This document shows positions 7,550 through 40,969 of a stretch of 64,000 nucleotides of DNA, in pieces. A program made the position numbers and the translations under genes. The DNA lies in assembly GCA_965262455.1 (NCBI GenBank), contig CBDHFH010000003.1:12406-76405 (forward strand), written 5' to 3'. The stretch is from Gammaproteobacteria bacterium. Its GTDB lineage: Bacteria; Pseudomonadota; Gammaproteobacteria; UBA4575. The notes under the pieces are model-generated. The model ran no database searches. It was not told the origin of the DNA and saw only the letters and a list, made by a program, of their open reading frames with translations. The first letter of the stretch is position 1. Each line of letters begins with the position of its first letter.

Positions 7550-8528
7550 TTACACTCTATCAATCACTGCCTTAAATACTTGCTCTGGTAGTATATCTTT
7601 AAGACAACGATAGTGATTATAACGACACGTACGCTGCCAACATGGACTGCATTCCAATTTCATATAAAACGTTTTCGCCTGCGCATGTAATGGCGGCGTA
7701 TACACTGGCGTAGTCGCTCCATACATGGCAACCACAGGCACATCCACAGCAGCAGCAATATGCATCAGTCCCGAATCATTACTCACTGCAACACTACAAC
7801 TTGCCAATATATCAATGACATCCAGCAAACTGGTCTTACCGCATAAATTCATCACCGGTTGGCGGCATAACTTCTGTATCTGATCTCCTATTGCGGCATC
7901 TTTTTGTGAGCCGAGAATACAAACTTCCAGACCTTGTTCAACCAGCTTATCTATTAACTTAACAAAGTGCTCAATTGGCCATTGTTTGGAAGGTCCGAAT
8001 TCCGCGCCAACCATACAAGCAATCAGTGGGGCCTGCTGTGGAATGTTATGGTAAGCAATTAACTTGCGTTGATTTTGACTGTCAATTATCAGTTCGGGCG
8101 CGTATGTTTTTTTTTACCTCGGTGATATCTACTTCGATACCTGCATGACGCAAATAATTACACACCGTTGGGATGCTTTTACTTTTGTTAGAACTCAGCA
8201 CATGATTAATTAATCCATGTCGGAACTCTCCCAGTTCACCCACTCGTCGGGGGATGCCAGCCAGCACTGGCACCAGCGCTGATTTATATGACCTAGGCAG
8301 CACCAGTGCTTGAGTAAATGATTCAGCACGTAATGTTACCCCCAGTCGATAACGTTTACTCAAGCCAAACTCCCCATGAGCAACTTCTAACGCATGCACT
8401 TTAGTGATCTCAGGCATACGTTCGAGTAAAGCGCGAGACCATGCAGGCGCTACCACATGTATTTGGGCTGAGTTAGAATGAGCGGCAAGCGCTTTATATA
8501 GTGCTTGCGCCATAACCATATCACCCAC
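7550..8528 (-). pseudogene. waaF: ADP-heptose:LPS heptosyltransferase II (WaaF/RfaF), split by a -1/+2 frameshift inside an A9 tract
   Basis: The N-terminal ORF (8082..8528) ends ITEVKKNIRARTDN*. The C-terminal ORF frame, read back across the tract, gives KKTYAPELIIDSQNQRKLIAYHNIPQQAPLIACMVGAEFGPSKQWP, matching the conserved WaaF segment before the GAEFGPxKxWP motif. Confidence 0.7.
8107..8115 (-). repeat. homopolymeric tract (T9 on plus, A9 in the coding strand) at the waaF frameshift point
   Basis: Read directly: cgtatg-ttttttttt-acctc. A8 or A11 would restore one full-length WaaF ORF. Confidence 0.9.
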
Positions 8529-21459: not shown

Positions 21460-22677
21460 TTAAACCGTCTTACGATGTCCAAACGGCTTCCATGCTGGCG
21501 CAATCACATTAGGCATTTCTGAACGATTAATTAAATTAGCAGGCGCAAGAGTAAATTCACCGTAACGTTGATTAATCTTGTCCATAGCTAAATTGATCTG
21601 ATCGCGTTGAGTATCATGAGTTTCAAACAGGCACAGTTGGCGACCTGCAAAGCTAGGATCTAATGCCGTAATCTGCACTTGTGAACAACCTTGCTTGCGC
21701 CATTCATTACGCAAAAATGCATTCGCCAGTTTTTTTATATGCTGACTATCATTAGTCGGTATGTAGTTTTGTGTTTTTTGCGTTATCCAGCCTTGATTTG
21801 TTTTCACACCAATAAAATATGTTTGTGCTTCCAATTGATGTTTGCGCAGCCTGGCAGCAACTTTTTCTGCCATATGATGAAGATACATTTTTATTGTTGT
21901 TATGCTCTTGGTATTAGGCGGCATCACTTTGCCATGCCCGATAGATTTTGGCGCTGCCACACTTTGCTTTACTGGGTCAGGGTCTTGACCTTGCGCCATA
22001 TACCAAATGCGCCTGCCTAAGTTACCAAATCTATTTGCCAATTCACCAATTGGCAAGCGCTGCATATCTCCACATACATGCACGCCTCGATCATTTAGAA
22101 AATTACCAATGCCTGACGCAATACCACTCAGCTCCGTTACGGGTAATGCACTTAGATACTCACGTGCCTGTTTGGGAGGGACTACAAACAATCCATTCGG
22201 TTTTCTTTTTTTTGCGGCATGCTTAGCTGTGGTTTTATCTCCACTCACACCTACACTACACGTTACTCCACTCGCTTCATGGACTAACTGTTTGGCCATC
22301 TCTCCTGCTTCTACAGGGCTGGCATAAATTTTTTGACAACGCGTCACATCCAGGAATGCTTCATCCACGGAAAACACCTCAACATCAGGCGTTACTGTTT
22401 GCAGCACAGACATAATCTCTGTAGATACTTGCGCATAACGATAGGGCCTCGCTGGCACTTGAATTACATCAGGGCAAAGTTGTCGTGCTTGTTTAATATG
22501 CATGCCTGTTTGAATGCCGTACTTTCTTGCTTCGTAAGAACAAGTAATAAAGCATGTGCCAATTTCGCCATTAGTAATACCAATCGGTTTGCCGCGTAAT
22601 TCAGGACGATCAAATTGCTCAATACTGGCAAAGAAAGCATCCATATCAATAAATACTATGGCCCGCTCCCAATGCAT
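21460..22677 (-). CDS. umuC: Y-family translesion DNA polymerase (UmuC-like)
   Basis: IVFIDMDAFFASIEQ and SVDEAFLDVT catalytic motifs. UmuC-like blocks (ITNGEIGTCFITCSYEARKYGI, VGVSGDKTTAKHAAKK). The start overlaps the lexA stop. Confidence 0.75.
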   Translation of the reverse strand: MHWERAIVFIDMDAFFASIEQFDRPELRGKPIGITNGEIGTCFITCSYEARKYGIQTGMHIKQARQLCPDVIQVPARPYRYAQVSTEIMSVLQTVTPDVEVFSVDEAFLDVTRCQKIYASPVEAGEMAKQLVHEASGVTCSVGVSGDKTTAKHAAKKRKPNGLFVVPPKQAREYLSALPVTELSGIASGIGNFLNDRGVHVCGDMQRLPIGELANRFGNLGRRIWYMAQGQDPDPVKQSVAAPKSIGHGKVMPPNTKSITTIKMYLHHMAEKVAARLRKHQLEAQTYFIGVKTNQGWITQKTQNYIPTNDSQHIKKLANAFLRNEWRKQGCSQVQITALDPSFAGRQLCLFETHDTQRDQINLAMDKINQRYGEFTLAPANLINRSEMPNVIAPAWKPFGHRKTV

Positions 22678-22678
22678 T

Positions 22679-23281
22679 TCAATCGTACACTCTCACTTGC
22701 CCCACCAATACACCTTGAATAGTGACGCGTTTAGCTGCGTATTCTTTTGCTTGCATATTTTTATTGGCAGGAATTAACCGCACCGTATTTTTATTCGGGT
22801 ACTGAATACGTTTAAGCGTAACGTCCTGGGCATCAATTAATGCCACTACAATTTGATTACTGCGCGCGCTGCTGGCATGTTCAATAATCACCATGTCACC
22901 ATGACGAATGCCCTCATCCACCATCGACTGCCCTTTTACTTCCAGCACATAACGGTTAGGTCCATTTAATAAATGAGTAAAATTTATTGTTTGTTTATCT
23001 TCAATCGCCTCAATAGGCTTGCCTGCGGCAATACAACCCAACAAGGGCAAATCGTCAATATCTGGGTGATCGGCTAACTCAATACCACGCGTTTTAGGAT
23101 TGCGAATAATATAGCCTTTGTCTTCCAGCGCTGATACATAGCGGTGTACCACCCCTTTAGACTGAATCCCCAAGCCCGTAGCAATTTCAGTCAATAGCGG
23201 CGCTTTGCGCTGTTTAACATAGTAATTAACAATAAAATCGAAGGTGTCTTGTTCGCGTTTGGTTAGCATATAAGTTCTCAT
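22679..23281 (-). CDS. lexA: LexA repressor (wHTH + S24 peptidase domains)
   Basis: N-terminal winged-HTH (LTKREQDTFDFIVNYY...GYIIRNPKTRGIEL). Ala-Gly cleavage site (CIAAGKP). Ser (GQSMVDEGI) and Lys (TLKRI) of the catalytic dyad. The true start is likely the second Met (MLTKREQ). Confidence 0.8.
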   Translation of the reverse strand: MRTYMLTKREQDTFDFIVNYYVKQRKAPLLTEIATGLGIQSKGVVHRYVSALEDKGYIIRNPKTRGIELADHPDIDDLPLLGCIAAGKPIEAIEDKQTINFTHLLNGPNRYVLEVKGQSMVDEGIRHGDMVIIEHASSARSNQIVVALIDAQDVTLKRIQYPNKNTVRLIPANKNMQAKEYAAKRVTIQGVLVGQVRVYD

Positions 23282-27869: not shown

Positions 27870-28237
27870 GCATTTTAATCATGTATTTACATAGTTCACT
27901 CGCTTAGAGTTTATATGCAGACTCAGAAGTGTTTGCATGACTCATGCACGTAAGCACTTGAACAATGTAGAAAAACAAAAAATATTATGTCTGCTTTTCG
28001 ACCTGGAGTAAGGCTCGAAACTATTGCTGCGAGATAGATGAGGGTAGCACTCAGCCTCTATCCAGTATAAATTACCCTCGTTATGAGTTTACTGAAGCAG
28101 ATACGACAAAAACAGGCGTCAAAATAACAAACATATACGCACTGAATCCCACGATTTGTAGATTACATTTGGAGCACACTCTACCCCTCACTGGGAATCG
28201 TCCAGTTATTCACATTTTAAATATAAGGAGCAGTTGA

Positions 28238-28870
28238 ATGTCACTGACACCAGAAGAATTAGAAGCCATCATGGAACGTAAAAATAAGATGCGACGCGAG
28301 GCATATGACCGTCGCAACGCACAAGAAAACAAGGATGAGGTTAGCGCTAAAGCCGTTAAACGCTTTATGGAGCTGCCTGACTATCAGAATGCTCACTGTG
28401 TTATGTGGTACATCGACTGCCGATCAGAAACGCGCACCAAGCCTGAGTTACTCGCAGAAGTCGCCAAGGGCGAAAAGAAAATTATCGTGCCTTACTGCAC
28501 TGAAGATGAAAACGGTGAAAACAAACTTGGTCTATGGTGGATGGAAAGCCTAGAAGAGATGGTGGTTGGTAAATGGGATATCCTTGAGCCGCCTAAAGAA
28601 ATGTGGGGCAATCCAGAAAAAGAAGTTGAAGCTGAAGACCTCGATCTTGTTATGGTTCCTGGCGTTGGCTTTGACCGTAATGGGGGACGCATGGGTAATG
28701 GCCAAGGTTACTATGACCGCTTGCTGGAAAAAGTTCGCCCAGAATCACCTTTGATTGCGCTCTGCTACGAGTCGCAGTTATTCGACAATGTGTTAGTGGC
28801 ACCACATGATGTTTACATGGATAAAGTTGTTACTGAAGATGCTGTTTACGAAGGTAAAGGAAGAGACTAA
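28238..28870 (+). CDS. 5-formyltetrahydrofolate cyclo-ligase (MTHFS) family protein
   Basis: 210 aa. MTHFS-family signature (MVPGVGFDRNGGRMGNGQGYYDRLL). Stop overlaps the fhcD start (TAATG). Confidence 0.7.
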   Translation: MSLTPEELEAIMERKNKMRREAYDRRNAQENKDEVSAKAVKRFMELPDYQNAHCVMWYIDCRSETRTKPELLAEVAKGEKKIIVPYCTEDENGENKLGLWWMESLEEMVVGKWDILEPPKEMWGNPEKEVEAEDLDLVMVPGVGFDRNGGRMGNGQGYYDRLLEKVRPESPLIALCYESQLFDNVLVAPHDVYMDKVVTEDAVYEGKGRD

Positions 28871-29793
28871 TGACTGCCATTATTGATGACACTTATGCAG
28901 AAGCGTTTAGAAGCTTCTACACAGAGTTTCTAATTACTGCAAAAGACTTGAAGTGGGTGGAGCACGCCGTGAATGCGGCCACAGGCAATGCATCAAGTTC
29001 CATTCTATGTGATTGTGAAGCCGGGCTAGATCGATATGTGGGTCCTGGTGCTGATGAGAGTTTTGAAACACCTGATGGTCGTCCTGGCGCATTGGTGCAG
29101 TTGCACGTGCCACGTTTTCGCAAAGATCGCGTAGAAGCATTAGAGCGCTCTGCGTTAGTGAGGATCAGTCAGAATGTGATGACATGCCCAACTGCATCAT
29201 GTTTCAACATGATTGACTCTGAGAACTACTATCATATGGGCCGCAAAGTCGCTTACTTCGGTAATGGTTACCAAAAACGTATTGAACGTTATGGGCGCAA
29301 AATGTGGTGGATCCCGATTCTTGGTGGCGAGTTTGTGCTTGATCGCCGATTGGGGCAAGCCGATGGTCTAATGGGGGGCAATCTTTGGTTCTTTGGTAAA
29401 GATGTTGACTCTGCACTGGAAGCCGCCGAAAAAGGCTGCGAAGCTATTTCTCCTATCGATGGCGTGATCACTACATTCCCGGGCGGTATTGCTGGCAGCG
29501 GTTCTAAAGCTGGTAGTAATTACGATTTCACTATTGCAAGTACCTATGAAAAGTTTTGTCCACTACTGCAAGATGATCCCACCGTTGAACATGGTCTCCC
29601 TGAAGGCGTTAACTCAGTGATGGAAATTATCATGAATGGACGCGATATGGCTTGCATTGTTGAAGCAACTCAAGCGGCGATCCAAGCATCTAAAGAAACA
29701 GATGGACTCATTATGATATCAGCAGGTAACTATAATGGACGTCTAGGTAAGAGCTTTATTTACCTGGATCCGAGCAAACAGCCCAATGACTAA
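28870..29793 (+). CDS. fhcD: formylmethanofuran:tetrahydromethanopterin N-formyltransferase (Ftr/FhcD)
   Basis: 307 aa. Ftr-like throughout (DDTYAEAFRSFYTEFLITA, GNASSSILCDCEAGLDRYV). No fhcA/B/C adjacent. Confidence 0.85.
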   Translation: MTAIIDDTYAEAFRSFYTEFLITAKDLKWVEHAVNAATGNASSSILCDCEAGLDRYVGPGADESFETPDGRPGALVQLHVPRFRKDRVEALERSALVRISQNVMTCPTASCFNMIDSENYYHMGRKVAYFGNGYQKRIERYGRKMWWIPILGGEFVLDRRLGQADGLMGGNLWFFGKDVDSALEAAEKGCEAISPIDGVITTFPGGIAGSGSKAGSNYDFTIASTYEKFCPLLQDDPTVEHGLPEGVNSVMEIIMNGRDMACIVEATQAAIQASKETDGLIMISAGNYNGRLGKSFIYLDPSKQPND

Positions 29794-29904: not shown

Positions 29905-29945
29905 TAAGGCCAGTTGAATTAAACTCAATTGGCCTTTTTTAATTG
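29905..29945 (+). terminator. rho-independent terminator after fhcD
   Basis: Hairpin GGCCAGTTG-aattaaact-CAATTGGCC, followed by TTTTTTAATTG. Confidence 0.5.
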
Positions 29946-29976: not shown

Positions 29977-30834
29977 GTGGTTATCGACGGCAAAAAAGTT
30001 GCTTTACAAATTCGCAACAGAATCAAAGCACAACTAGAAAACTTCCCACATGCAAACATTACCCTAGCCACTGTTATTGTCGGCAAGAACCCTGCAAGTC
30101 AGTTATACGTAGGCATGAAACACCGTGAAGCAAATGCAGCGGGCATTCACTCGAAACATGTCGAACTAGATGAAAACATTACCCAACTTGAATTAGAGCA
30201 ACAAATTACACTGTTAGCGAATGACGATAACGTCCATGGCATACTTGTACAATTGCCGTTGCCAAAGCATTTGAACAAAGAAAAAATGCTGGAAAAAATT
30301 CCTGCGGAGAAAGACGTTGATGGTTTGACTGACACCAACATGGGCCGTCTACTGCAAGGACATAAACAACTTGTGCCCTGTACACCCTTGGGTGTGATGC
30401 GTCTAATTGAAGCATACAATGTCACTACCAACGGCAAAAACGCGGTAGTTATTGGGCGCTCATCTTTGGTTGGCTTACCGCAAGTGTTATTGCTTGCAGA
30501 ACGCGGCGCAGATGCCACTGTCACACTGGCTCATTCACGCACTCAAGATCTAGCCGAGGTATGCAAACAGGCCGATATATTAGTAAGTGCAGTGGGCTCT
30601 CCCGCACTTGTTACAGAGCAGTTTATTAAACCTGGTGCAATGGTATTTGATGTTGGCGTAACTCGCCTAGATAACCAAAAAATCCAGGGTGATGTTGATT
30701 TTGATGCAGCGATAAAAATTGCTGGCGGCGTCACGCCTATGCCGGGCGGAACAGGCCCGATGACGGTGGCTTGTTTACTCGAAAACACTATTCTTGCAGC
30801 CACCCTGCAAGACGCATTACCCAGATCACATTAA
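29977..30834 (+). CDS. folD: bifunctional methylene-H4F dehydrogenase / methenyl-H4F cyclohydrolase
   Basis: FolD motifs (GKNPASQLYVGMKHRE, VQLPLPKHL, GRSSLVGLP, GGVTPMPGGTGPMT). Start set at the GTG at 29977, preceded by GAGGG. The ORF track begins at 29929. Confidence 0.85.
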   Translation: MVIDGKKVALQIRNRIKAQLENFPHANITLATVIVGKNPASQLYVGMKHREANAAGIHSKHVELDENITQLELEQQITLLANDDNVHGILVQLPLPKHLNKEKMLEKIPAEKDVDGLTDTNMGRLLQGHKQLVPCTPLGVMRLIEAYNVTTNGKNAVVIGRSSLVGLPQVLLLAERGADATVTLAHSRTQDLAEVCKQADILVSAVGSPALVTEQFIKPGAMVFDVGVTRLDNQKIQGDVDFDAAIKIAGGVTPMPGGTGPMTVACLLENTILAATLQDALPRSH

Positions 30835-31067: not shown

Positions 31068-32351
31068 ATGCCTGGCGAAAAACTTAGTTACCCTGGAAGA
31101 AATTATCTATTTGCACCTGGTCCGACGCATATCCCTAATGAAGTAATGAATGCCATGGTCGTTCCCCAAGAAGACCATCGCGCACCGGACTTTCCACAAC
31201 TAGTGAAGCCCTTACTAGAAGACTTGAAGAAAATTTTCAGAACTAAAAAAGGCCAGTGTTTTATTTTTCCTGCAACCGGCACAGCAGGTTGGGAAATTGC
31301 ATTAGCAAATACATTATCACCTGGCGATAAAATACTGACATCACGTTTTGGTCAGTTCAGTCACTTGTGGTATGACTTAGCCATACGCATCGGCCTAGAC
31401 GTTGAACTTATTGAAATCCCATGGGGCGAAGGTGTGCCAGTCATGGAATTTAAAAAGCGTCTTCGTGCTGATAAAGATCACAAAATTAAAGCCGTTGTTG
31501 CATGTCATAATGAAACTGCGACTGGTGTGACAAGCGATATCGCCGCACTTGGCAAAATGATAAAGAAGGATCTCAAACATCCTGCGCTGTTAATGGTTGA
31601 CGGTGTTAGCTCAATTGCGAGTATTGATTTTCGCATGGACGAGTGGGGTGTAGACGTTGCCGTAAGCGGATCACAAAAAGGCTTCATGCTTCCTGCGGGT
31701 ATGGCGCTGTTAGCATTTAGTCCCAAGGCACTTGCTAAGCATAAATCTTCAAAGTGCGCGAAGTGCTTTTTAGATATCAAAGATCACATCAATACTAATA
31801 AAGACGGCTTCTTCCCGTACACGCCTTCAGTACCCATGTTACGTGGTTTACGTGCCTCACTCGACTTGCTACTCGGAGAAGGCCTAGACAATGTCTATGC
31901 TCGACACTTCCGTCTTGCCGAAGGAGTGCGTAAGGCCGTTAAAGCATGGGGCTTAGAGACGTGTGCCACTTCTCCAAAATGGCGTTCTGACACAGTTACC
32001 GCAATTTTGGCCCCACCCAGTGTTAATGCGGCAGAAGTCATCCACATTGCATATCATCGTTACAATATCTCCTTGGGTGCCGGCCTGACAAAAGTCGCAG
32101 GTAAAGTATTTCGCATCGGCCATCTTGGTGATAATAACGATGTGCGCATGATGGCCGCACTTGGTGGCGTTGAAATGGCCATGCGTGATGCCGGTATCCG
32201 TATCAAACCCGGCAGCGGTACAGGTGCAGCATGCGAATACTATCGTAAGACTGCTAAAGCAATTCCTGCGTTTAAAGCACCGGCCGCGACTAAACCTAAA
32301 GCAAAGCGTAAAACTAAAAGAAGAACAGTTAAACGCACAGCTGCAAAATAA
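31068..32351 (+). CDS. sga: serine-glyoxylate aminotransferase with a C-terminal lysine/alanine-rich basic tail
   Basis: Class V aminotransferase, SGAT-like throughout (LFAPGPTHIPNEVMNAM, SGSQKGFMLPAG). 427 aa, including a roughly 25-aa tail APAATKPKAKRKTKRRTVKRTAAK. Confidence 0.85.
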   Translation: MPGEKLSYPGRNYLFAPGPTHIPNEVMNAMVVPQEDHRAPDFPQLVKPLLEDLKKIFRTKKGQCFIFPATGTAGWEIALANTLSPGDKILTSRFGQFSHLWYDLAIRIGLDVELIEIPWGEGVPVMEFKKRLRADKDHKIKAVVACHNETATGVTSDIAALGKMIKKDLKHPALLMVDGVSSIASIDFRMDEWGVDVAVSGSQKGFMLPAGMALLAFSPKALAKHKSSKCAKCFLDIKDHINTNKDGFFPYTPSVPMLRGLRASLDLLLGEGLDNVYARHFRLAEGVRKAVKAWGLETCATSPKWRSDTVTAILAPPSVNAAEVIHIAYHRYNISLGAGLTKVAGKVFRIGHLGDNNDVRMMAALGGVEMAMRDAGIRIKPGSGTGAACEYYRKTAKAIPAFKAPAATKPKAKRKTKRRTVKRTAAK

Positions 32352-32367
32352 GAGAGGATATTAACCT

Positions 32368-33315
32368 ATGAGTTTTACACAACCTACACCTGCCAGACAA
32401 AGAGTGCAGCGATGCGAGCTCGCAGTACCTGCATCCAATGTCAAAATGATCGAGAAGTCCGCCGACTGTGATGCAGACTTTGTATTTCTAGATTTAGAAG
32501 ATGCCGTCGCACCGGGTGACAAAGTTCAAGCACGTAAGAACGCCATTGAAGCGGTCAATGATATTGACTGGGCTGGTAAAGGCAAAACGATTGCAGTTCG
32601 CATTAATGGCCTTGATACACATTATATGTATCGTGATGTCATAGATCTTGTCGAACAAGCAGGCAGTAAGCTCGATACGATTTTTATTCCTAAAGCGGGT
32701 GTTCCGGCGGATGTTTACATGGTTGATGCCTTACTTACTCAAATCGAGGAAGCCAAAGGATTCGAAAATAAAATCGCCATAGAAGCCATCATTGAAACCA
32801 CCTTAGGCATGTCCAACGTAGAGTCGATTGCGCAATCAAGCCCGCGCCTGGAAGCTCTGCACTTTGGTGTAGCGGACTACTCAGCTAGTTGTCGTGCGCG
32901 TACCGTTAATATTGGTGGGTTAAATCCAGATTACCCGGGTGACCAGTGGCATTCCGCAATCTCACGCATGGTTGTTGCTTGTCGCGCATATGGTTTACGT
33001 CCTATTGACGGTCCATTCGGCGATATCAAAGACCCGGAAGGTTACATGCTGGCATGTCGTCGTGGTGCTGCACTTGGTATCGAGGGTAAATGGGCTATCC
33101 ACCCATCACAAATTGAAATGGCGAATGAGGTCTTCTCTCCACCTGAAGAAGAGGTCGCAAAAGCACATCGAATTCTAGAAGAACTAGAAAAAGCCGCTCA
33201 AGCGGGCCAAGGCGCTGCCACCTTGGATGGCAAAATGATCGACGCGGCGTCAGCAAAAATGGCAGAGAACGTTGTTCGTGCCGCTGAAGCCATTGCTGCT
33301 AAGAGTAAATCTTAA
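32368..33315 (+). CDS. mcl: malyl-CoA lyase
   Basis: Near-collinear with MclA of serine-cycle methylotrophs (FLDLEDAVAP, INGLDTHYMYRDV, GKWAIHPSQI). 315 aa. Confidence 0.9.
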   Translation: MSFTQPTPARQRVQRCELAVPASNVKMIEKSADCDADFVFLDLEDAVAPGDKVQARKNAIEAVNDIDWAGKGKTIAVRINGLDTHYMYRDVIDLVEQAGSKLDTIFIPKAGVPADVYMVDALLTQIEEAKGFENKIAIEAIIETTLGMSNVESIAQSSPRLEALHFGVADYSASCRARTVNIGGLNPDYPGDQWHSAISRMVVACRAYGLRPIDGPFGDIKDPEGYMLACRRGAALGIEGKWAIHPSQIEMANEVFSPPEEEVAKAHRILEELEKAAQAGQGAATLDGKMIDAASAKMAENVVRAAEAIAAKSKS

Positions 33316-33511: not shown

Positions 33512-34687
33512 GTGGACATCCACGAGTATCAAGCAAAAGAGCTATTATCCAAATTCGGCGTCAGTATCGCGCCAGGTGGATTAGCATACAGCCCGGAACA
33601 GGCTGTTTATCGCGCTAAAGAAATTGGCGGAAATAAATGGGTGGTTAAAGCACAAATACACTCTGGCGCACGCGGAAAAGCAGGCGGTGTAAAACTGTGT
33701 ACGTCTGAAGAAGAAGTACTCGCTGTTGCCACTGAGTTACTTGGAAAAACCCTAGTCACGCACCAAACCGGGCCACAAGGAAAAGTTGTCTACCGCCTGT
33801 ATATAGAAGAAGGCACAGACATCGAAAAAGAACTCTACGTTGCGCTTGTGCTTGACCGAGTTAAACAACGCGTGGCAATTATTGCATCAACCGAAGGCGG
33901 CATGGACATTGAAGAAGTGGCCGCCACTAATCCTGATGCCATTATTCGAACTGAAATCGAACCACAAGTCGGTTTGACCGACTTCCAGGCACGTGAAATC
34001 GCGTTCCAACTTGGTCTCGATCCTTCTCTTATCTCTCAAGCAGTAAAAACCTTAAAAGGTGCATACCGCTCTTTCACAGAACTTGATGCAACTATGGTTG
34101 AAATCAATCCATTAGTGATTACCAAGGACGGCCACATCCGTGCACTTGATGCCAAAATGGGATTTGATAGTAATGCCCTATTCCGTCGCCCACAAATTGC
34201 TGAATTACGTGATAAATCTCAAGAAGATCCTCGCGAAACTGCAGCTTCAGACTATGGCTTAAGTTATGTTGGTTTAGACGGCGATATCGGTTGCATGATT
34301 AACGGTGCCGGCTTAGCCATGGCATCCCTTGATATGATCAAGCACAAAGGCGGCGAACCTGCCAACTTCCTAGATATTGGTGGCGGTGCCTCACCCGAAC
34401 GTGTCGCAAAAGCATTTGAACTGGTACTTGCAGATGAGGGCGTAAAAGCATTTCTAGTCAATATTTTTGCCGGCATTAACCGTTGCGATTGGATTGCTGA
34501 AGGGATTGTTCAAGCCTTCAAACAGTTAGACGTGAAAGTACCTCTCGTGGTTAGACTCTCTGGAACCAATGTTGAGCAAGGACAAAAAATTCTTGCCGAT
34601 AGCGGTTTACCAATTATCAATGCGCACACACTTGCTGAAGCTGCTGAAAAAGCGGTAGAAGCACGCAACCAAGCCGTTGGCGCCTAG
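33512..34687 (+). CDS. mtkA: malate thiokinase (malate-CoA ligase) large/beta subunit
   Basis: ATP-grasp succinyl-CoA-synthetase-beta-like ([28 protein letters not shown]). 391 aa. Lies in the serine-cycle block. Confidence 0.9.
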
Positions 34688-34711: not shown

Positions 34712-35599
34712 ATGACTGTATTACTTAATGAAAATACCAAAGTAATCGTACAAGGTTTTACCGGAAAGATTGGTACTTTCCACGCTGAAGAAATGATGGA
34801 ATACGGCACCAACCTAGTGGGCGGCGTAACACCGGGTAAAGGCGGAAAAGAGCATCTTGGCAAGCCAGTATTCAATACTGTTAAAGAAGCTGTCAACGAA
34901 GTCGGCGCTGAAGCCAGCATCATTTTCGTCCCGGCAGCATTTGCTGCTGACTCCATCATGGAAGCGGCAGATGCGGGCATTAAATATTGTGTCGCTATTT
35001 CTGATGGCATCCCAGCGCAAGACATGATGAAAGTGAAGCGCTACATGTATCGTTACAAAAAAGAAGACCGCATGGTCCTCACTGGCCCTAACTGTGCAGG
35101 CACCATCAGCCCAGGCAAAGCCATGCTAGGCATTATGCCAGGCCATATATACATGGAAGGCAATGTCGGTGTGGTCGGCCGCTCTGGCACATTGGGATAC
35201 GAAGCAGCATCACAAATGAAAGCGCTAGGCATTGGTATCACTACCAGTGTTGGCATTGGCGGTGACCCCATCAATGGCAGCTCTCACAAAGACATACTCG
35301 AGCACTTCGAAAAAGATCCAGATACTAAAGCGGTGATGATGATAGGTGAAATCGGTGGTCCACAAGAAGCCGAAGCAGCCGAGTTCTTCAAAAATCATAT
35401 GACAAAGCCATTGGTGGCTTATATTGCAGGCCTCACAGCACCTAAAGGACGACGCATGGGTCATGCTGGAGCAATTGTTTCGGGTGTCGGTGAAAGCGCT
35501 GCAGAGAAAGTCGCACTTCTCCAAGAAGCGGGCGTGACTGTTGCACCTAATCCATCGGATCTAGGCATTACGATGGAAAAAGTACTCAAAGAAATGTAA
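34712..35599 (+). CDS. mtkB: malate thiokinase small/alpha subunit
   Basis: SucD-like CoA-binding subunit (VIVQGFTGKIGTFH, catalytic His region GHAGAIVSG). 295 aa. Confidence 0.9.
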   Translation: MTVLLNENTKVIVQGFTGKIGTFHAEEMMEYGTNLVGGVTPGKGGKEHLGKPVFNTVKEAVNEVGAEASIIFVPAAFAADSIMEAADAGIKYCVAISDGIPAQDMMKVKRYMYRYKKEDRMVLTGPNCAGTISPGKAMLGIMPGHIYMEGNVGVVGRSGTLGYEAASQMKALGIGITTSVGIGGDPINGSSHKDILEHFEKDPDTKAVMMIGEIGGPQEAEAAEFFKNHMTKPLVAYIAGLTAPKGRRMGHAGAIVSGVGESAAEKVALLQEAGVTVAPNPSDLGITMEKVLKEM

Positions 35600-35669: not shown

Positions 35670-36638
35670 ATGAGTAAACCTAAAGTTATCGTTACCCGCA
35701 AATGGCCAGAACCCGTTGAAGCTCAGCTTAAAGAGTTATACGACGTTCAACTTAATGACAATGACGTTGCAATGACGCCAGACGAAATGAAAGCAGCACT
35801 TAATAACTGCGATGCATTTTGTCCTACGGTAACAGATCCAGTTAACGCAGATGTGTTAGGAACAGCGGATATTTCAGCGAAGATAATTGCCAGCTATGGT
35901 GTTGGCTTTAACCATATCGACTTGGACGCGGCAAAAGCACGCAATCTTACTGTCACCAACACACCTGAAGTGTTAACAGACTGCACTGCTGACATTGCCA
36001 TGGGTTTACTACTTTCTGCCGCACGCAGAATTGGCGAAGGTGAACGTCACTTGCGTGGTGGCGAATGGACTGGTTGGCGTCCAACTCACATGATGGCAAC
36101 TAAAGTCACTGGAAAAACCTTGGGCTGTATTGGCTTTGGACGTATCGCACAAGCCACCGCTGCGCGTGCACATTTTGGTTTCGGTATGAAAATCATTTTC
36201 AGTGATCCTTACCCACCTTCACAAGAAGTGATGAATCGCTTTGGCGCTACTCAAATGAGTGTCGAGGAAGTGTTACAGCAAGCTGACTTTGTTTCACTGC
36301 ATTGCCCTGGCGGTAAAGATACATATCACTTACTTAACGAAGAGCGCATTGGCATGATGCAAAAACATGCTGTGCTTGTTAACTCAGCACGAGGAGATGT
36401 CATCGACAACCAAGCGCTAATCAAAGCACTAAAAGATGGCACTATTGCAGGCGCAGGTTTAGATGTGTTTGAAGGTGAACCTAAGTTGGATCCTGGCTTT
36501 TTAGATTGCGAAAATGCCGTGTTACTTCCGCACCTTGGAAGTGCATCAATCGAAACACGTATTGCCATGGGTGAGCGCGTGTTAGAAAACTTAAAAGCAT
36601 TTTTTGCGGGCGATGTCCCTCGTGATAAGTTGGTATAA
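35670..36638 (+). CDS. hprA: hydroxypyruvate reductase / D-glycerate dehydrogenase (D-2-hydroxyacid dehydrogenase family)
   Basis: NAD-binding motif GCIGFGRIAQA. Catalytic R/E/H of D-2-hydroxyacid dehydrogenases. Position between mtkB and ppc. Confidence 0.7.
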   Translation: MSKPKVIVTRKWPEPVEAQLKELYDVQLNDNDVAMTPDEMKAALNNCDAFCPTVTDPVNADVLGTADISAKIIASYGVGFNHIDLDAAKARNLTVTNTPEVLTDCTADIAMGLLLSAARRIGEGERHLRGGEWTGWRPTHMMATKVTGKTLGCIGFGRIAQATAARAHFGFGMKIIFSDPYPPSQEVMNRFGATQMSVEEVLQQADFVSLHCPGGKDTYHLLNEERIGMMQKHAVLVNSARGDVIDNQALIKALKDGTIAGAGLDVFEGEPKLDPGFLDCENAVLLPHLGSASIETRIAMGERVLENLKAFFAGDVPRDKLV

Positions 36639-36761: not shown

Positions 36762-39557
36762 ATGACAACCAAGAAGAAATCAATGTCTATAAAATCGTTT
36801 TTATCAAACTGGACTCAGTTTGTATCGATGTCGAGTAGCGCTTCAATCTCAGAGCGAGTAACCAAGTACGGCGACGAAGTATCGGAACTTTTATTCAACA
36901 GTTTGCTTGCTGTCATTCGCAAACGTAGCCCTGAAATTGAAGATATTATTCTTGGTAACCAGGAGCTACGACAGTCGAACGAAACATTACTGACTCACGC
37001 ACTGCAAGCATATGGCATTTGGTTTCAGTTATTATCTATTCTTGATCAACATGTTCATGAAAAGCGCTTGCGCTTGATAGAAACAGATATAGGTCATGAT
37101 CAAGTACCCGGGACATTTGCGCAAGTCGTTGCACAAGCAGCAAACGAAGGTGTCACAGCGGAACAACTGCAAAACGTATTACAAAACTCATCTATCTTGC
37201 CCACTATTACGGCACACCCAACAGAAGCAAAGCGCGTGACTGTGCTGGAAATTCATCACCGAATTTATATGCTACTTAAGCAGCTCGAGAAAGACCGCAC
37301 TACTCCACGCGAAAAAGATATGCTTAAACAAAAAGTCAAAGATGAAATTGATCTACTTTGGCTGACGGGTGAGATTCGTCTCGAAAAACCAACGGTTCTA
37401 CAAGAAGTATCTTGGGGAATGCATTTCTTTAAAGAGTCACTATACGAAGGGGTGGTGCAACTCTATTCAGAATTAGAACGTGTGCTTATTACCTATTATC
37501 CGGATAGCGAATTTAATATTCCGGCATTTTTCCAGTTTGGTTCATGGATTGGTGGCGATCGTGATGGTAATCCTTTTGTTACTACCGAAGTGACAGATCA
37601 TGCAGTTAAACAATCTGCTAAAGCCACTCTGCAACATTACCTTACTGAATTAAAGCAACTTGGTTCTTATTTAAGTATCGCTAATCATTCAGTTGAGTTA
37701 CCCGAAAAATTTTATGATGAACTAAATAATATCCTAGAAAAAAGCGGAGAAGCAGATAACATAAAGTCACGCAATCCGGGCGAAGTATTTAGACAGATTG
37801 TCTATTGCATTGTTAAACGCCTTACCGCCAATCTTTATCAACTTTCTACTGACAGCAAACAAATCATTGCTTATGCATCTGCCGGTGAAATCGCAGCTGA
37901 TTTGCGCGTCATAGAAGATGGACTTATTGCAGCCAAGTGTGAATCACTATGCATGAACTATATTCGTCCATTCCGCCATGCTGTCGAAGCATTTGGTTTT
38001 CACACCACAAGCTTGGATCTAAGACAAAATTCAACCGTCACCACACAGGCATTACAAGACATCTGGAAAGTACAAAATGGTCTAGATGACGAGCCGCCGG
38101 CGAAAGAGAGTAAACAATGGCGTGATTGGCTATTAGAGAAAATTCAAGAGCCTATCGATCGGCTGCCACAGTTTAGCTCGCTATCGGAAATGAGTGCAGC
38201 GACGCTCGAGCTGATGGCTTTAATTCGTAACCTGCAAGAAAAAGTCGATCGTGATGCATTTGGTGTGTTTATTTTAAGTATGACGCAGTCGAGTGAAGAC
38301 ATTATCGGCGTTTACCTGCTTGCCAAGTATGCTGGCCTGTTTACAGATGCCAAGCATGTCGAATCAAGCCGCATCTTGATTGTGCCACTGCTAGAAACGA
38401 TTGATGATTTACGCAATGGCCCAGCTATTTTAGAGGATTTACTCGATATCCCATTTGTTCGTCGTACGATTGTGGAACATGGTGGCCATCAAGAAATCAT
38501 GGTGGGTTACTCTGATTCCAATAAAGATGGTGGTTGCGTGTGTTCTACTTGGGAAGTCAGTAAAGCTCAAACAATGATTTATCAAGCCGGCCAAAAACAT
38601 GGTATTGAAATTTCATTTTTCCATGGTCGTGGCGGTTCTGTCTCTCGTGGCGGCGCACCTGCTGGTCGCGCTATTGCTGCACAACCGGCTGGCACAATTA
38701 ATGGGCGCATGCGAGTGACTGAACAAGGTGAAGTCGTCTCAAGTAAATTTGCTAACCGTGAAGTTGCTGAGCAACAGATGGAGCTGCTTGCTGCAAGTGT
38801 TCTATCGCACACACTATTCTCAAAACAGGATCCCAACTTACAAAAACGTTCTGAATATGACGAGATCATGGAGATACTGTCTTCAACGTCGCAAATAAGA
38901 TATCGAGAGTTAGTCGAAACACCGGGATTGGTCGATTTCTATCAATATGCCAGTCCGGTTGAAGAACTCACTCTGATGAAAATTGGGTCACGCCCGGCAC
39001 GACGCTTTGGCGCTTCAAGTCTTGATGACTTACGTGCAATTCCATGGGTATTTGCCTGGACTCAGAACCGCTTAATGGTTCCGGGGTGGTATGGCTATGG
39101 TACAGCAATTAATCATCTGCTAAATGAACGTGGCGAGGATGGCTTAACAATATTGCATGAAATGTTTGAGAAGTGCCCTATCTTCAGACTCATCACAGAC
39201 AACGTAGAAAAAATGTTATTTCTGACTGACTTTGATGTCGCCAATGAATATGCATCATTAGTCGAAGATGAAACAAGCTGCAAAGAAATTATGGGCTTAA
39301 TTCAGTCAGAGCGTGAACTCACAGAACAAATGTTACTTAAAGTGACACAAGAAACAGAGTTGTGTAAGCGTTTCCCTAATTTCCATGACACAATGGTCGC
39401 AAGAATTGACGGCATCAAACAAATTGGCTTGGAACAAGTAAAACTTGTCAAGCAATTCAGAGATCCTGATACGACCAAGATTAGCGGACAGGAAAGCTTG
39501 GTTCCGCTGTTGTTATCAATTAACTGCGTAGCTGCTGGTTTAGGCTGGACCGGATAA
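36762..39557 (+). CDS. ppc: phosphoenolpyruvate carboxylase
   Basis: 931 aa with PEPC signatures (VMVGYSDSNKDGG, FHGRGGSVSRGG). Possible start at 36783. Confidence 0.9.
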   Translation: MTTKKKSMSIKSFLSNWTQFVSMSSSASISERVTKYGDEVSELLFNSLLAVIRKRSPEIEDIILGNQELRQSNETLLTHALQAYGIWFQLLSILDQHVHEKRLRLIETDIGHDQVPGTFAQVVAQAANEGVTAEQLQNVLQNSSILPTITAHPTEAKRVTVLEIHHRIYMLLKQLEKDRTTPREKDMLKQKVKDEIDLLWLTGEIRLEKPTVLQEVSWGMHFFKESLYEGVVQLYSELERVLITYYPDSEFNIPAFFQFGSWIGGDRDGNPFVTTEVTDHAVKQSAKATLQHYLTELKQLGSYLSIANHSVELPEKFYDELNNILEKSGEADNIKSRNPGEVFRQIVYCIVKRLTANLYQLSTDSKQIIAYASAGEIAADLRVIEDGLIAAKCESLCMNYIRPFRHAVEAFGFHTTSLDLRQNSTVTTQALQDIWKVQNGLDDEPPAKESKQWRDWLLEKIQEPIDRLPQFSSLSEMSAATLELMALIRNLQEKVDRDAFGVFILSMTQSSEDIIGVYLLAKYAGLFTDAKHVESSRILIVPLLETIDDLRNGPAILEDLLDIPFVRRTIVEHGGHQEIMVGYSDSNKDGGCVCSTWEVSKAQTMIYQAGQKHGIEISFFHGRGGSVSRGGAPAGRAIAAQPAGTINGRMRVTEQGEVVSSKFANREVAEQQMELLAASVLSHTLFSKQDPNLQKRSEYDEIMEILSSTSQIRYRELVETPGLVDFYQYASPVEELTLMKIGSRPARRFGASSLDDLRAIPWVFAWTQNRLMVPGWYGYGTAINHLLNERGEDGLTILHEMFEKCPIFRLITDNVEKMLFLTDFDVANEYASLVEDETSCKEIMGLIQSERELTEQMLLKVTQETELCKRFPNFHDTMVARIDGIKQIGLEQVKLVKQFRDPDTTKISGQESLVPLLLSINCVAAGLGWTG

Positions 39558-39720: not shown

Positions 39721-40578
39721 ATGAAAAAGTTACTTTACCATTTCGATACTGACAAGATACCCAGTGTTTTTGATTCTGTGGTGGCCTATGACGGTGGCGC
39801 AGATCATGTTACTCAACTGGCAGGCATTAATCCTGACAATTGTTATTCCCTAGTTGAAGGGGCAATTTATACGCGTGCACCTAAACACAAGAAAAATACC
39901 GCTTTGTTTATTGGAGGTAGCGATTTAGCTGCCGGCCAAACATTATTTGAAGCAGTACAAAAAATATTTTTTCAAAACTTCCGTGTATCTGTGATGCTTG
40001 ATAGTAACGGCTGTAACACAACCGCTGCTGCAGGGGTAGCACTGATCGCTAACTCTACTGATATTCAAGGCAAAACGGCAGTCGTATTAGCTGGCACCGG
40101 TCCTGTTGGTCAGCGTGCCGCCGCAATGCTTGCCATGAACGGTGCTAATGTTCGTTTAACTTCACGCAAATTAGATCGTTCCCAACAATCATGTGAATTA
40201 ATGCAACAGCAATTTGGTGTCGAATTAACTCCTATGGTTGCCGCGGATGATGAATCGATTAGTCAAGCACTGGATAATGCTCATATTGTATTTGGTGCTG
40301 GCAAGACAGGCATTCAGTTATTAAATGCACAGCAGTGGCAAGATCATCCAACCATCGAAGTCATGGCAGACGTTAATACCGCGCCACCTCTTGGTTTTGA
40401 GGGCATCGACATGATGGATAAAAATGAGCAGCGCTTTGGCAAGCGTATTTTTGGCGGCATCGGCATTGGCGCACTTAAATTACAATTGCATCGTGCATGT
40501 ATTGCGCGTTTATTTGAAAGTAATGACTTGGTGCTTGACGCCAAAGAAGTTTATCAGACTGCAGAATCGCTACTTTAA
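39721..40578 (+). CDS. mtdA: NADP-dependent methylene-H4MPT/methylene-H4F dehydrogenase
   Basis: 285 aa, MtdA-like (VVAYDGGADHV, AVVLAGTGPVGQRAA Rossmann motif). Confidence 0.85.
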   Translation: MKKLLYHFDTDKIPSVFDSVVAYDGGADHVTQLAGINPDNCYSLVEGAIYTRAPKHKKNTALFIGGSDLAAGQTLFEAVQKIFFQNFRVSVMLDSNGCNTTAAAGVALIANSTDIQGKTAVVLAGTGPVGQRAAAMLAMNGANVRLTSRKLDRSQQSCELMQQQFGVELTPMVAADDESISQALDNAHIVFGAGKTGIQLLNAQQWQDHPTIEVMADVNTAPPLGFEGIDMMDKNEQRFGKRIFGGIGIGALKLQLHRACIARLFESNDLVLDAKEVYQTAESLL

Positions 40579-40588
40579 CATCAAGCTT

Positions 40589-40969
40589 ATGCAACGCAAT
40601 CAACATCCAACATTCGGATATAAGCGTATATTCAATGCGGTAATCTTTTCTTTTCGCGGCATTGCTGCTACCTGGAAAAGTGAAGCGGCTTTTCGTGAAG
40701 AGATTATTTCGGGTATTATTTTATTCCCCGCGGCATTTTTACTTGGCGAATCACTCACGCAGACAGCCATATTAATCATTCCATTATTTATAGTATTGAT
40801 TGTTGAATTACTTAATACCGGGATTGAACACGTGGTTGACCGCGTTGGCTTGGAACATCATGAGTTATCAAAATTGGCAAAAGATGCGGGTTCCGCTGCG
40901 GTATTCCTGGGCAATATGTTAATCATTAGTGTATGGACACTGGTGGCATTCGATCGATTCCTTTTCTAA
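40589..40969 (+). CDS. dgkA: diacylglycerol kinase
   Basis: 127 aa from the ATG at 40589. E. coli DgkA-like (FREEIISGI, VELLNTGIEHVVDRVGLEHHELSKLAKDAGSAAV). The ORF track begins upstream at a non-homologous extension. Confidence 0.85.
   Translation: MQRNQHPTFGYKRIFNAVIFSFRGIAATWKSEAAFREEIISGIILFPAAFLLGESLTQTAILIIPLFIVLIVELLNTGIEHVVDRVGLEHHELSKLAKDAGSAAVFLGNMLIISVWTLVAFDRFLF

Follow-up and report, generated by a model that had tools for sequence, protein, structure and literature searches.

A conserved, translationally coupled MTHFS-ftr gene pair in marine Gammaproteobacteria and Planctomycetota and its possible role in formyl transfer to tetrahydrofolate

Methylotrophs are thought to join formaldehyde oxidation on tetrahydromethanopterin (H4MPT) to assimilation on folate only via free formate, by means of Fhc and then formate-tetrahydrofolate (THF) ligase. 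In the established reactions of their families, the formyltransferase Ftr makes an N5-formyl pterin and the 5-formyl-THF cyclo-ligase MTHFS consumes N5-formyl-THF. SHMT makes 5-formyl-THF, which is an inhibitor, and housekeeping MTHFS repairs it. The formyltransferase/hydrolase complex FhcABCD of Methylorubrum extorquens is described by PDB entry 6s6y (PMC6926001). Here, we present an analysis of a gene pair in a 64,000-nucleotide (nt) stretch of a gammaproteobacterial assembly (GCA_965262455.1, contig CBDHFH010000003.1, positions 12,406 to 76,405; hereafter, the window), in which a gene for an MTHFS-family protein overlaps by one nucleotide with a gene for a formyltransferase of the Ftr/FhcD family. 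More importantly, we found that MTHFS-ftr is a conserved, translationally coupled two-gene module that is present at ~150 loci in Gammaproteobacteria and Planctomycetota.

In common with FhcABCD, the window Ftr belongs to the family of FhcD, has two lobes and a catalytic Glu, and would act at the same node, the formyl level of C1 oxidation; unlike FhcD, it has no adjacent fhcA, fhcB or fhcC, is only ~38% identical to the proteobacterial protein and has as its partner what is, by family, an ATP-dependent cyclo-ligase rather than a hydrolase, and on the chromosome CP070821.1, such a pair replaces fhcBADC. The closest solved relatives of the window Ftr are the stand-alone archaeal Ftr proteins (Methanopyrus, 1ftr/2fhj; Archaeoglobus, 1m5h; Methanosarcina, 1m5s), and, like them, it is encoded away from any Fwd or Fhc complex within the window; however, its clade differs from them by the substitutions Arg22 to Glu, Phe43 to Asn and Cys96 to Asn, by the pairing with MTHFS and by its hosts, which are aerobic bacteria and planctomycetes. 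With the FtfL-Fch-MtdA route of Methylorubrum, the pair shares a predicted formyl input, a predicted output of methylene-THF for SHMT and a predicted cost of one ATP, as well as the operon partners sga, hpr, mtkAB, mcl, ppc and mtdA. In contrast to that route, the proposed entry is N5-formyl-THF (by Ftr and MTHFS) rather than N10-formyl-THF (by FtfL and Fch), free formate would not be involved, and neither ftfL nor fch was found in the window. The window MTHFS is of the same family as the housekeeping enzymes (YgfA, YqgN; 1ydm, 1sou, 3hxt), with the same motifs and a score above the NCBIfam equivalog cutoff; whereas those enzymes remove a dead-end by-product, 5-formyl-THF would here be a pathway intermediate, and the gene is coupled to ftr. 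Finally, the MTHFS homologues of folate-free methanogens (MTH204; PMC3087415) are also MTHFS-family proteins of unexplained function in an H4MPT/methanofuran setting; however, the methanogens lack folate, and adjacency to ftr has not been reported for them, whereas the bacteria considered here have FolD and THF metabolism.

The MTHFS-like gene (28238-28870, + strand) encodes a protein of 210 amino acids (aa) and is preceded by an AAGGAG Shine-Dalgarno-like motif (28225-28230, + strand), which we recognized by reading the sequence and which lies 7 nt before the start codon. The protein matches PF01812 over its full length (E = 1.4e-39; model positions 1-186 of 186), scores 131 bits on TIGR02727 (MTHFS_bact) and, thus, above the curated cutoff of 84.9, carries the GxGxGYYDR motif as GNGQGYYDR and is ~30% identical to the solved MTHFS structures 1ydm, 1sou, 2jcb and 3hxt. 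The ftr gene (28870-29793, + strand; 307 aa) starts within the sequence TAATG, in which the TAA stop codon of the MTHFS-like gene (28868-28870) and the ATG start codon of ftr (28870-28872) share base 28870. Both Ftr lobes were found in its product, i.e. PF01913 at residues 4-150 (E = 2e-41) and PF02741 at residues 153-299 (E = 2e-45). Profile matches and sequence reading, thus, confirm an earlier note on this DNA, which had described an MTHFS-family gene and an Ftr homologue with a one-nucleotide overlap.

By curated score, the window Ftr appears to be a borderline member of its family: It reaches 310.7 on NF002554 (cutoff 297) and 293.5 on the fhcD equivalog TIGR03119 (cutoff 292.6), a margin of ~1 bit. 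It aligns end to end with four solved Ftr/FhcD structures, scoring 216-224 bits against archaeal Ftr (224 for 1m5h) and 168 bits against M. extorquens FhcD (6s6y_D), and the catalytic Glu (Glu245 in M. kandleri, Glu252 in FhcD) is retained, with "MEII" of the window Ftr aligned to "YEIV" of 1ftr. Of the 27 columns that are conserved to at least 85% in canonical Ftr sequences, 24 are also kept in the clade to which the window Ftr belongs; the three lost ones are Arg22 (M. kandleri numbering), which is replaced by Glu, Asp129 (Asn or Asp) and Pro199 (Thr). Among the changes that are invariant in the clade are the charge reversal at Arg22 and the substitutions Phe43 to Asn and Cys96 to Asn. A single-sequence AlphaFold model was meaningless (pLDDT 30) and was discarded.

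A search of 1.84 billion representative proteins returned one full-length representative with 66% identity to the window Ftr, which belongs to a cluster named Planctomycetota, while all others were at most 45% identical (best outside the clade, 43-45%). In a neighbour-joining tree, one long branch joins the window Ftr with the other marine gammaproteobacterial and the Pirellulaceae sequences, separate from archaeal Ftr and proteobacterial FhcD. Identity within this Planctomycete-type clade is at least 66-70%, and its members come from Planctomycetota and uncultured marine Gammaproteobacteria. We rejected the idea, which the earlier note had raised, that the window ftr is a duplicated fragment of fhcD: The gene is full length and highly conserved, its product shares no more than 45% identity with any canonical Ftr or FhcD, and it falls in a distinct clade of its own. 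Separately, four representatives of the Ftr family (P0138, 541 aa; P0155, 592 aa; P0166, 655 aa; and P0153, 391 aa) are far longer than 300 aa; therefore, in these proteins the Ftr domain is likely fused to another part.

Using the window Ftr, we scanned one genome per GTDB species and recovered 80 loci with 70-98% identity. The pair occurs in at least 67 species-level genomes; their hosts are uncultured marine Gammaproteobacteria, both free-living and sponge-associated, with chromosomes of 1.6-2.7 Mb and with labels such as Candidatus (Ca.) Oxydemutatoraceae, Ca. Porisulfidus, 'Thiotrichales' and 'Chromatiales', and, on the other side, Pirellulaceae and other Planctomycetota. Among the complete chromosomes with the pair are OZ245760.1, whose Ftr is 93% identical to that of the window, CP070821.1, OZ243040.1, OZ244717.1 and OZ244209.1 (Pirellulaceae). 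In the non-planctomycete genomes, the MTHFS-like gene lies immediately upstream of ftr in 63/63 cases, folD follows immediately downstream in 58/64, and sga and mcl follow downstream in 51/60. In the planctomycete-labelled genomes, the MTHFS-like gene is immediately upstream of ftr in 8/13 and divergent in two others, folD is immediately downstream in 0/11 and sga and mcl are downstream in 0/10; apart from the pair itself, these loci have no conserved neighbours. A reciprocal metagenome search with the MTHFS-like protein placed ftr immediately downstream in 59/64 informative loci, and the distance from the MTHFS stop codon to the ftr start codon is between -4 and +7 nt in 134/149 loci. Since both search directions and both phyla show the adjacency to be conserved, it is far beyond chance, and chance adjacency was rejected. 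Thus, the MTHFS-like gene is not unlinked to ftr in relatives, a possibility that the earlier note had left open. Its proposal that the coupling reflects a functional link is strongly supported by this conservation; by contrast, the mechanism that it had attached to the link, in which the MTHFS-like enzyme acts on 5-formyl-H4MPT, is not supported in view of the futile cycle that Mch would create, of the oxidative direction implied by Fae and of the THF-linked context of the pair. We note that some labels of metagenome-assembled genomes fit the gene content poorly (L044, L051, L029), likely due to mis-binning or mislabelling; for instance, bins called 'Planctomycetaceae' have an Ftr with 80% identity, and one called 'Mycobacterium sp.' has the full gammaproteobacterial serine-cycle arrangement.

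The pair occurs in three kinds of genomic context. In the first, which is that of the window, it stands at the head of what we consider to be a serine-cycle operon. In the second, it is part of a compact four-gene island, fae-MTHFS-ftr-mfnB, in the gammaproteobacterial loci L077 (8624-11672), L147, L151 and L152; here, Fae is matched with E = 8e-57, mfnB encodes the 4-HFC-P synthase of methanofuran biosynthesis (E = 2e-67), and the island is set among the gammaproteobacterial housekeeping genes era-rnc-lepB-lepA, rseB and ppk/ppx. In the third, on CP070821.1, whose Ftr is 87% identical to that of the window, folD, ftr and the MTHFS-like gene (MTHFS being transcribed first) are divergent from the cluster hpr-(aminotransferase-like)-mptG-mtdB-ATPgrasp-mch-rimK-citG-fae, in which mptG is of the beta-RFA-P synthase family (TIGR00144, 168 versus a cutoff of 113.5), mtdB is mtdB-like and rimK is RimK/MptN-like. 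A related marine gammaproteobacterium has an orthologous H4MPT cluster (MptG 68%, MtdB 75%, Mch 71% and Fae 91% identity). In this relative, the divergent slot is occupied by the canonical fhcB-fhcA-fhcD-fhcC genes (L086, 4636-9296; L084 is a further comparison locus with the canonical arrangement), and in the CP070821.1-type locus by folD-ftr-MTHFS (L085, 4833-6391). The formyltransferases in the two syntenic slots are only 38% identical, so that CP070821.1 seems to have exchanged the Fhc complex for the non-orthologous MTHFS-Ftr-FolD. The connection to H4MPT and methanofuran that the earlier note had drawn is seen in some relatives, in the fae-MTHFS-ftr-mfnB island and beside mptG-mtdB-mch-fae; the gammaproteobacterial context is THF-linked, with folD immediately downstream in 58/64 loci and then the serine cycle and mtdA.

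To search the window for related genes, all open reading frames (ORFs) in the 64 kb that encode 150 aa or more were scanned against Pfam, and FhcA, FhcB, FhcC, Fae, Mch, MptG and MfnB from canonical clusters served as tblastn queries. By these two approaches, the window yielded no fhcA, fhcB, fhcC, mch, fae, mptG or mfn gene, and the sole gene of H4MPT/methanofuran type found there is an mtdA orthologue (39721-40578); nor did any of the ORFs scanned against Pfam match the FTHFS (ftfL) or Fch families. The lack of nearby fhcA, fhcB and fhcC, as reported in the earlier note, is, thus, borne out for the 64-kb window, and it is for the window, rather than the genome, that the description of ftr as an orphan holds. 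By tblastn, fhcA, fhcB and fhcC were likewise found in none of the 80 genome loci, and the 10-kb flanks of ~60 loci of the serine-cycle type contained neither H4MPT nor methanofuran genes. Among the best 120 MptG homologues (down to 51% identity), CP070821.1 was the only pair-bearing chromosome among the matches listed, and none of the ~14 other complete pair-bearing chromosomes was present. Among the best 120 FhcA homologues (down to 68% identity), no pair-bearing chromosome, including CP070821.1, was among the matches listed. Contigs of related marine gammaproteobacteria were present among the matches listed in both searches. These data suggest that CP070821.1 is without a proteobacterial-type FhcA and that the serine-cycle-type genomes are without a proteobacterial-type MptG.

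Based on these observations, our best, though tentative, reading is that the pair serves as an entry for formyl groups into the THF pool, in which Ftr N5-formylates the pterin, MTHFS with ATP makes methenyl-THF, and FolD and MtdA supply the serine cycle; we assign this model a probability of roughly 40%. While the identities of the genes, their tight coupling and its conservation, the three genomic contexts and the syntenic replacement of fhcBADC are shown by the data, we infer which pterin is used, what donates the formyl group and in which direction the flux runs. In the first step, based on the chemistry of the family, the Ftr-type enzyme would formylate a tetrahydropterin at N5, with a carrier amine as the donor. 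Where methanofuran or methylofuran is present, it would be this carrier, with the formyl group ultimately coming from 5-formyl-H4MPT, and THF is a possible acceptor that would yield 5-formyl-THF. If methanofuran could in this way shuttle formyl groups between 5-formyl-H4MPT and THF, then the presence of mfnB in the island would be explained. In the second step, the MTHFS cyclo-ligase would, as in its family, turn 5-formyl-THF irreversibly into 5,10-methenyl-THF at the expense of one ATP and, because this step is irreversible and driven by ATP, would pull the first step forward. In the third step, the serine cycle of the same operon would receive methylene-THF, formed from methenyl-THF by the reductases FolD, encoded next to the pair, and MtdA, encoded at the end of the operon. 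The module would, thus, bypass the Fhc hydrolase, free formate, FtfL and Fch at a cost of one ATP, the same as in the Methylorubrum route. The Ftr product is of the substrate type of MTHFS, an N5-formyl pterin, which fits with the translational coupling. We know of no sequence determinant of pterin specificity in the MTHFS family; the genomic context, i.e. the adjacency to folD, favours THF over H4MPT as the pterin of the MTHFS-like enzyme. Moreover, THF as the pterin would explain why folD is adjacent, why the pair heads the operon and why it has taken the place of fhcBADC. Tentatively, and with rather more doubt than confidence, we extend this model to propose that 5-formyl-THF is a true pathway intermediate, i.e. 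that the Planctomycete-type Ftr formylates N5 of THF from H4MPT/methanofuran or another formyl amine, that a dedicated MTHFS then makes methenyl-THF with ATP, and that the two together take over from the Fhc hydrolase, free formate, FtfL and Fch and supply the serine cycle in widespread uncultured marine gammaproteobacteria, including sponge symbionts.

Several points argue against formyl entry into the THF pool through this pair. To our knowledge, there is no biochemical evidence that any Ftr takes THF, H4MPT and methanofuran being the only partners known for the family. For the organism of the window, neither a formyl donor nor an H4MPT or methanofuran gene was found within the 64-kb window, and the absence of FhcA and MptG was judged from the best 120 matches, which planctomycete-type versions of these proteins would escape. 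Between the pair and folD, the window has a terminator-like hairpin, and co-transcription with the serine-cycle genes is, thus, not assured. The MTHFS gene beside serine-cycle genes could reflect the repair of 5-formyl-THF made by SHMT. Planctomycetes have been reported with full or partial H4MPT pathways (PMC9874027, PMC5020050), and the Planctomycete-type clade may simply represent the ordinary FhcD of planctomycetes.

The last two of these points come together in the alternative that survives best, which we nevertheless regard as unlikely. According to this alternative, the Planctomycete-type protein is the FhcD of an ordinary pathway with scattered genes and functions with methanofuran in H4MPT-dependent formaldehyde oxidation, fhcABC or another formyl-methanofuran hydrolase is encoded elsewhere, and MTHFS is a housekeeping repair enzyme that is co-regulated with C1 genes but does not use the Ftr product. 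The retention of 24/27 canonical Ftr columns, the score of the MTHFS-like protein as a normal bacterial MTHFS and the fae/mfnB and mptG-mtdB-mch-fae contexts agree with it, as does the origin of the clade representative in Planctomycetota, a phylum reported to have H4MPT-linked genes (PMC5020050, PMC9874027). However, a gene that is merely co-regulated would be unlikely to hold a spacing of -4 to +7 nt in 134/149 loci of two phyla amid changing neighbours, and the relatives of the MTHFS-like protein nearly always adjoin ftr (59/64). Moreover, the pair in CP070821.1 fills the slot of fhcBADC, and no proteobacterial-type FhcA from this chromosome was among the matches listed.

A further alternative is that the clade has changed its formyl donor. 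Here, in marine gammaproteobacteria without methanofuran and H4MPT, the Ftr-like enzyme would draw on a different N-formyl amine (for example, an N-formyl amino acid or a formamide-type compound) and transfer its formyl group to THF for activation by MTHFS, amounting to formyl scavenging. Glutamate formiminotransferases can reportedly shift formyl groups between 5-formyl-THF and glutamate, as described by Jeanguenin et al. in 2010, and the invariant substitutions of the clade at otherwise conserved positions, such as Arg22 (M. kandleri) to Glu, are in line with such a change, as are the lack of H4MPT and methanofuran genes in the window and in the 10-kb flanks of the ~60 serine-cycle-type loci and the absence of the ~14 other complete pair-bearing chromosomes among the MptG matches listed (best 120, at least 51% identity). 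We consider this improbable: It builds on negative evidence from the best 120 matches only, and members of the same clade at 73-87% identity adjoin mfnB, fae and mptG elsewhere, which argues against a wholesale change of substrate.

Mch interconverts 5-formyl-H4MPT, a regular intermediate, and methenyl-H4MPT near equilibrium and without ATP. That the pair works on H4MPT throughout, with Ftr making 5-formyl-H4MPT and the MTHFS-like protein acting as an ATP-dependent 5-formyl-H4MPT cyclo-ligase that yields methenyl-H4MPT for salvage or as a reductive drive, would suit the speculation of Thauer's group that the MTHFS homologues of folate-free methanogens act on 5-formyl-H4MPT (PMC3087415), the H4MPT and methanofuran genes that flank the pair in some loci and the ability of MtdA to take methylene-H4MPT besides methylene-H4F (tetrahydrofolate; per the name of PDB entry 6tge), but is improbable in that ATP would be wasted in a futile cycle wherever Mch is present (mch is in the cluster beside the pair in CP070821.1), the direction is contrary to oxidation initiated by Fae, the conserved neighbour is the folate enzyme FolD, and methenyl- and methylene-H4MPT are unusable by the adjacent serine cycle, which needs methylene-THF.

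In a full-text literature search, we found no paper on the adjacency of MTHFS and ftr or fhcD; the nearest was the speculation on methanogen MTHFS homologues (PMC3087415). While the protein families are known, the conserved Ftr-MTHFS module, its occurrence in both Planctomycetota and marine Gammaproteobacteria, its place as the first genes of serine-cycle operons and its substitution for fhcBADC are new relative to the literature searched. The module suggests a second, formate-free connection between the H4MPT and folate cofactor systems. If formyl groups do enter the THF pool in this way, 5-formyl-THF and MTHFS gain a biosynthetic role instead of one in repair, which bears on C1 assimilation in the ocean and on how partial H4MPT pathways with an orphan Ftr are read in metagenome-assembled genomes.

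The genes downstream of the pair, all on the + strand, are best read as a serine-cycle operon: sga, hpr, mtkA/mtkB, mcl, ppc and mtdA are co-located and have the same order in relatives. A predicted terminator-like hairpin with a 12-bp stem followed by a T run (29906-29945, + strand; consensus scan) lies between ftr and folD. It begins 113 nt past the ftr stop codon, overlaps the TTG start of the listed folD ORF and folds at -17.2 kcal/mol (z = -3.57), with 0/200 shuffles equally stable; the pair may, therefore, form a separate bicistronic unit with read-through. folD, which encodes the methylene-THF dehydrogenase/methenyl-THF cyclohydrolase (29977-30834, + strand; PF00763 and PF02882), probably starts at the GTG at 29977, which is preceded by GAGGG, rather than at the TTG at 29929 of the listed ORF; the family alignments start only at residue 16-18 of the longer TTG ORF. 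Upstream of the pair, a gene of the ilvD/edd family was excluded as part of the module, as it is 368 nt away and kept only in one gammaproteobacterial subgroup.

The next gene encodes a class-V aminotransferase of the serine/aspartate-glyoxylate type (31068-32351, + strand; PF00266), which scores 574 bits on NF045640, under the cutoff of 650, and which we assign as sga-like from context. The C-terminus of this protein (32280-32351) is a strongly basic tail rich in Lys, Arg and Ala (…ATKPKAKRKTKRRTVKRTAAK) that brings it to 427 aa versus ~418 aa in relatives. The mcl-like gene for a putative malyl-CoA lyase of the HpcH/HpaI/CitE family (32368-33315, + strand; PF03328, E = 1e-36) is likewise assigned from context, and its product passed no NCBIfam equivalog cutoff. 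mtkA, for the beta subunit of malate-CoA ligase (malate thiokinase; 33512-34687, + strand), scores 696 bits on NF010647 (cutoff 604), and mtkB, for the alpha subunit of malate/succinate-CoA ligase (34712-35599, + strand), scores 430 bits on NF004230 (cutoff 336). The hpr-like gene for a 2-hydroxyacid dehydrogenase resembling hydroxypyruvate/glyoxylate reductase (35670-36638, + strand) is matched at the family level, its top NCBIfam matches, glyoxylate reductase and GhrB, both being under cutoff. ppc, for phosphoenolpyruvate carboxylase (36762-39557, + strand), scores 772 bits on NF000584, slightly under the cutoff of 815, and PF00311 is matched in relatives. The mtdA orthologue, for an NADP-dependent methylene-H4F/methylene-H4MPT dehydrogenase, is on the + strand and matches PF09176 (Mpt_N); its product aligns over its full length with the M. 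extorquens MtdA structures 1lu9 and 6tge (336 bits, E = 1.6e-99). The diacylglycerol-kinase ORF as listed (40424-40969) overlaps the 3' end of mtdA by ~150 nt; its Pfam match begins at residue 75, and the true start is, therefore, probably farther downstream.

Elsewhere in the window, a 154-aa ORF at 7550-8014 aligns with no more than the C-terminal half of the heptosyltransferase family model (Glyco_transf_9, positions 113-246) and may represent a truncated gene or a miscalled start in a lipopolysaccharide-core region. At 21460-23281, genes for a LexA/UmuD-like S24 peptidase and, after it, a Y-family (ImpB/MucB/UmuC) polymerase make up a pair of the SOS mutagenesis type. Finally, 59463-61823 encodes a large protein of the secreted type with seven FG-GAP repeats and four bacterial TSP3 repeats.

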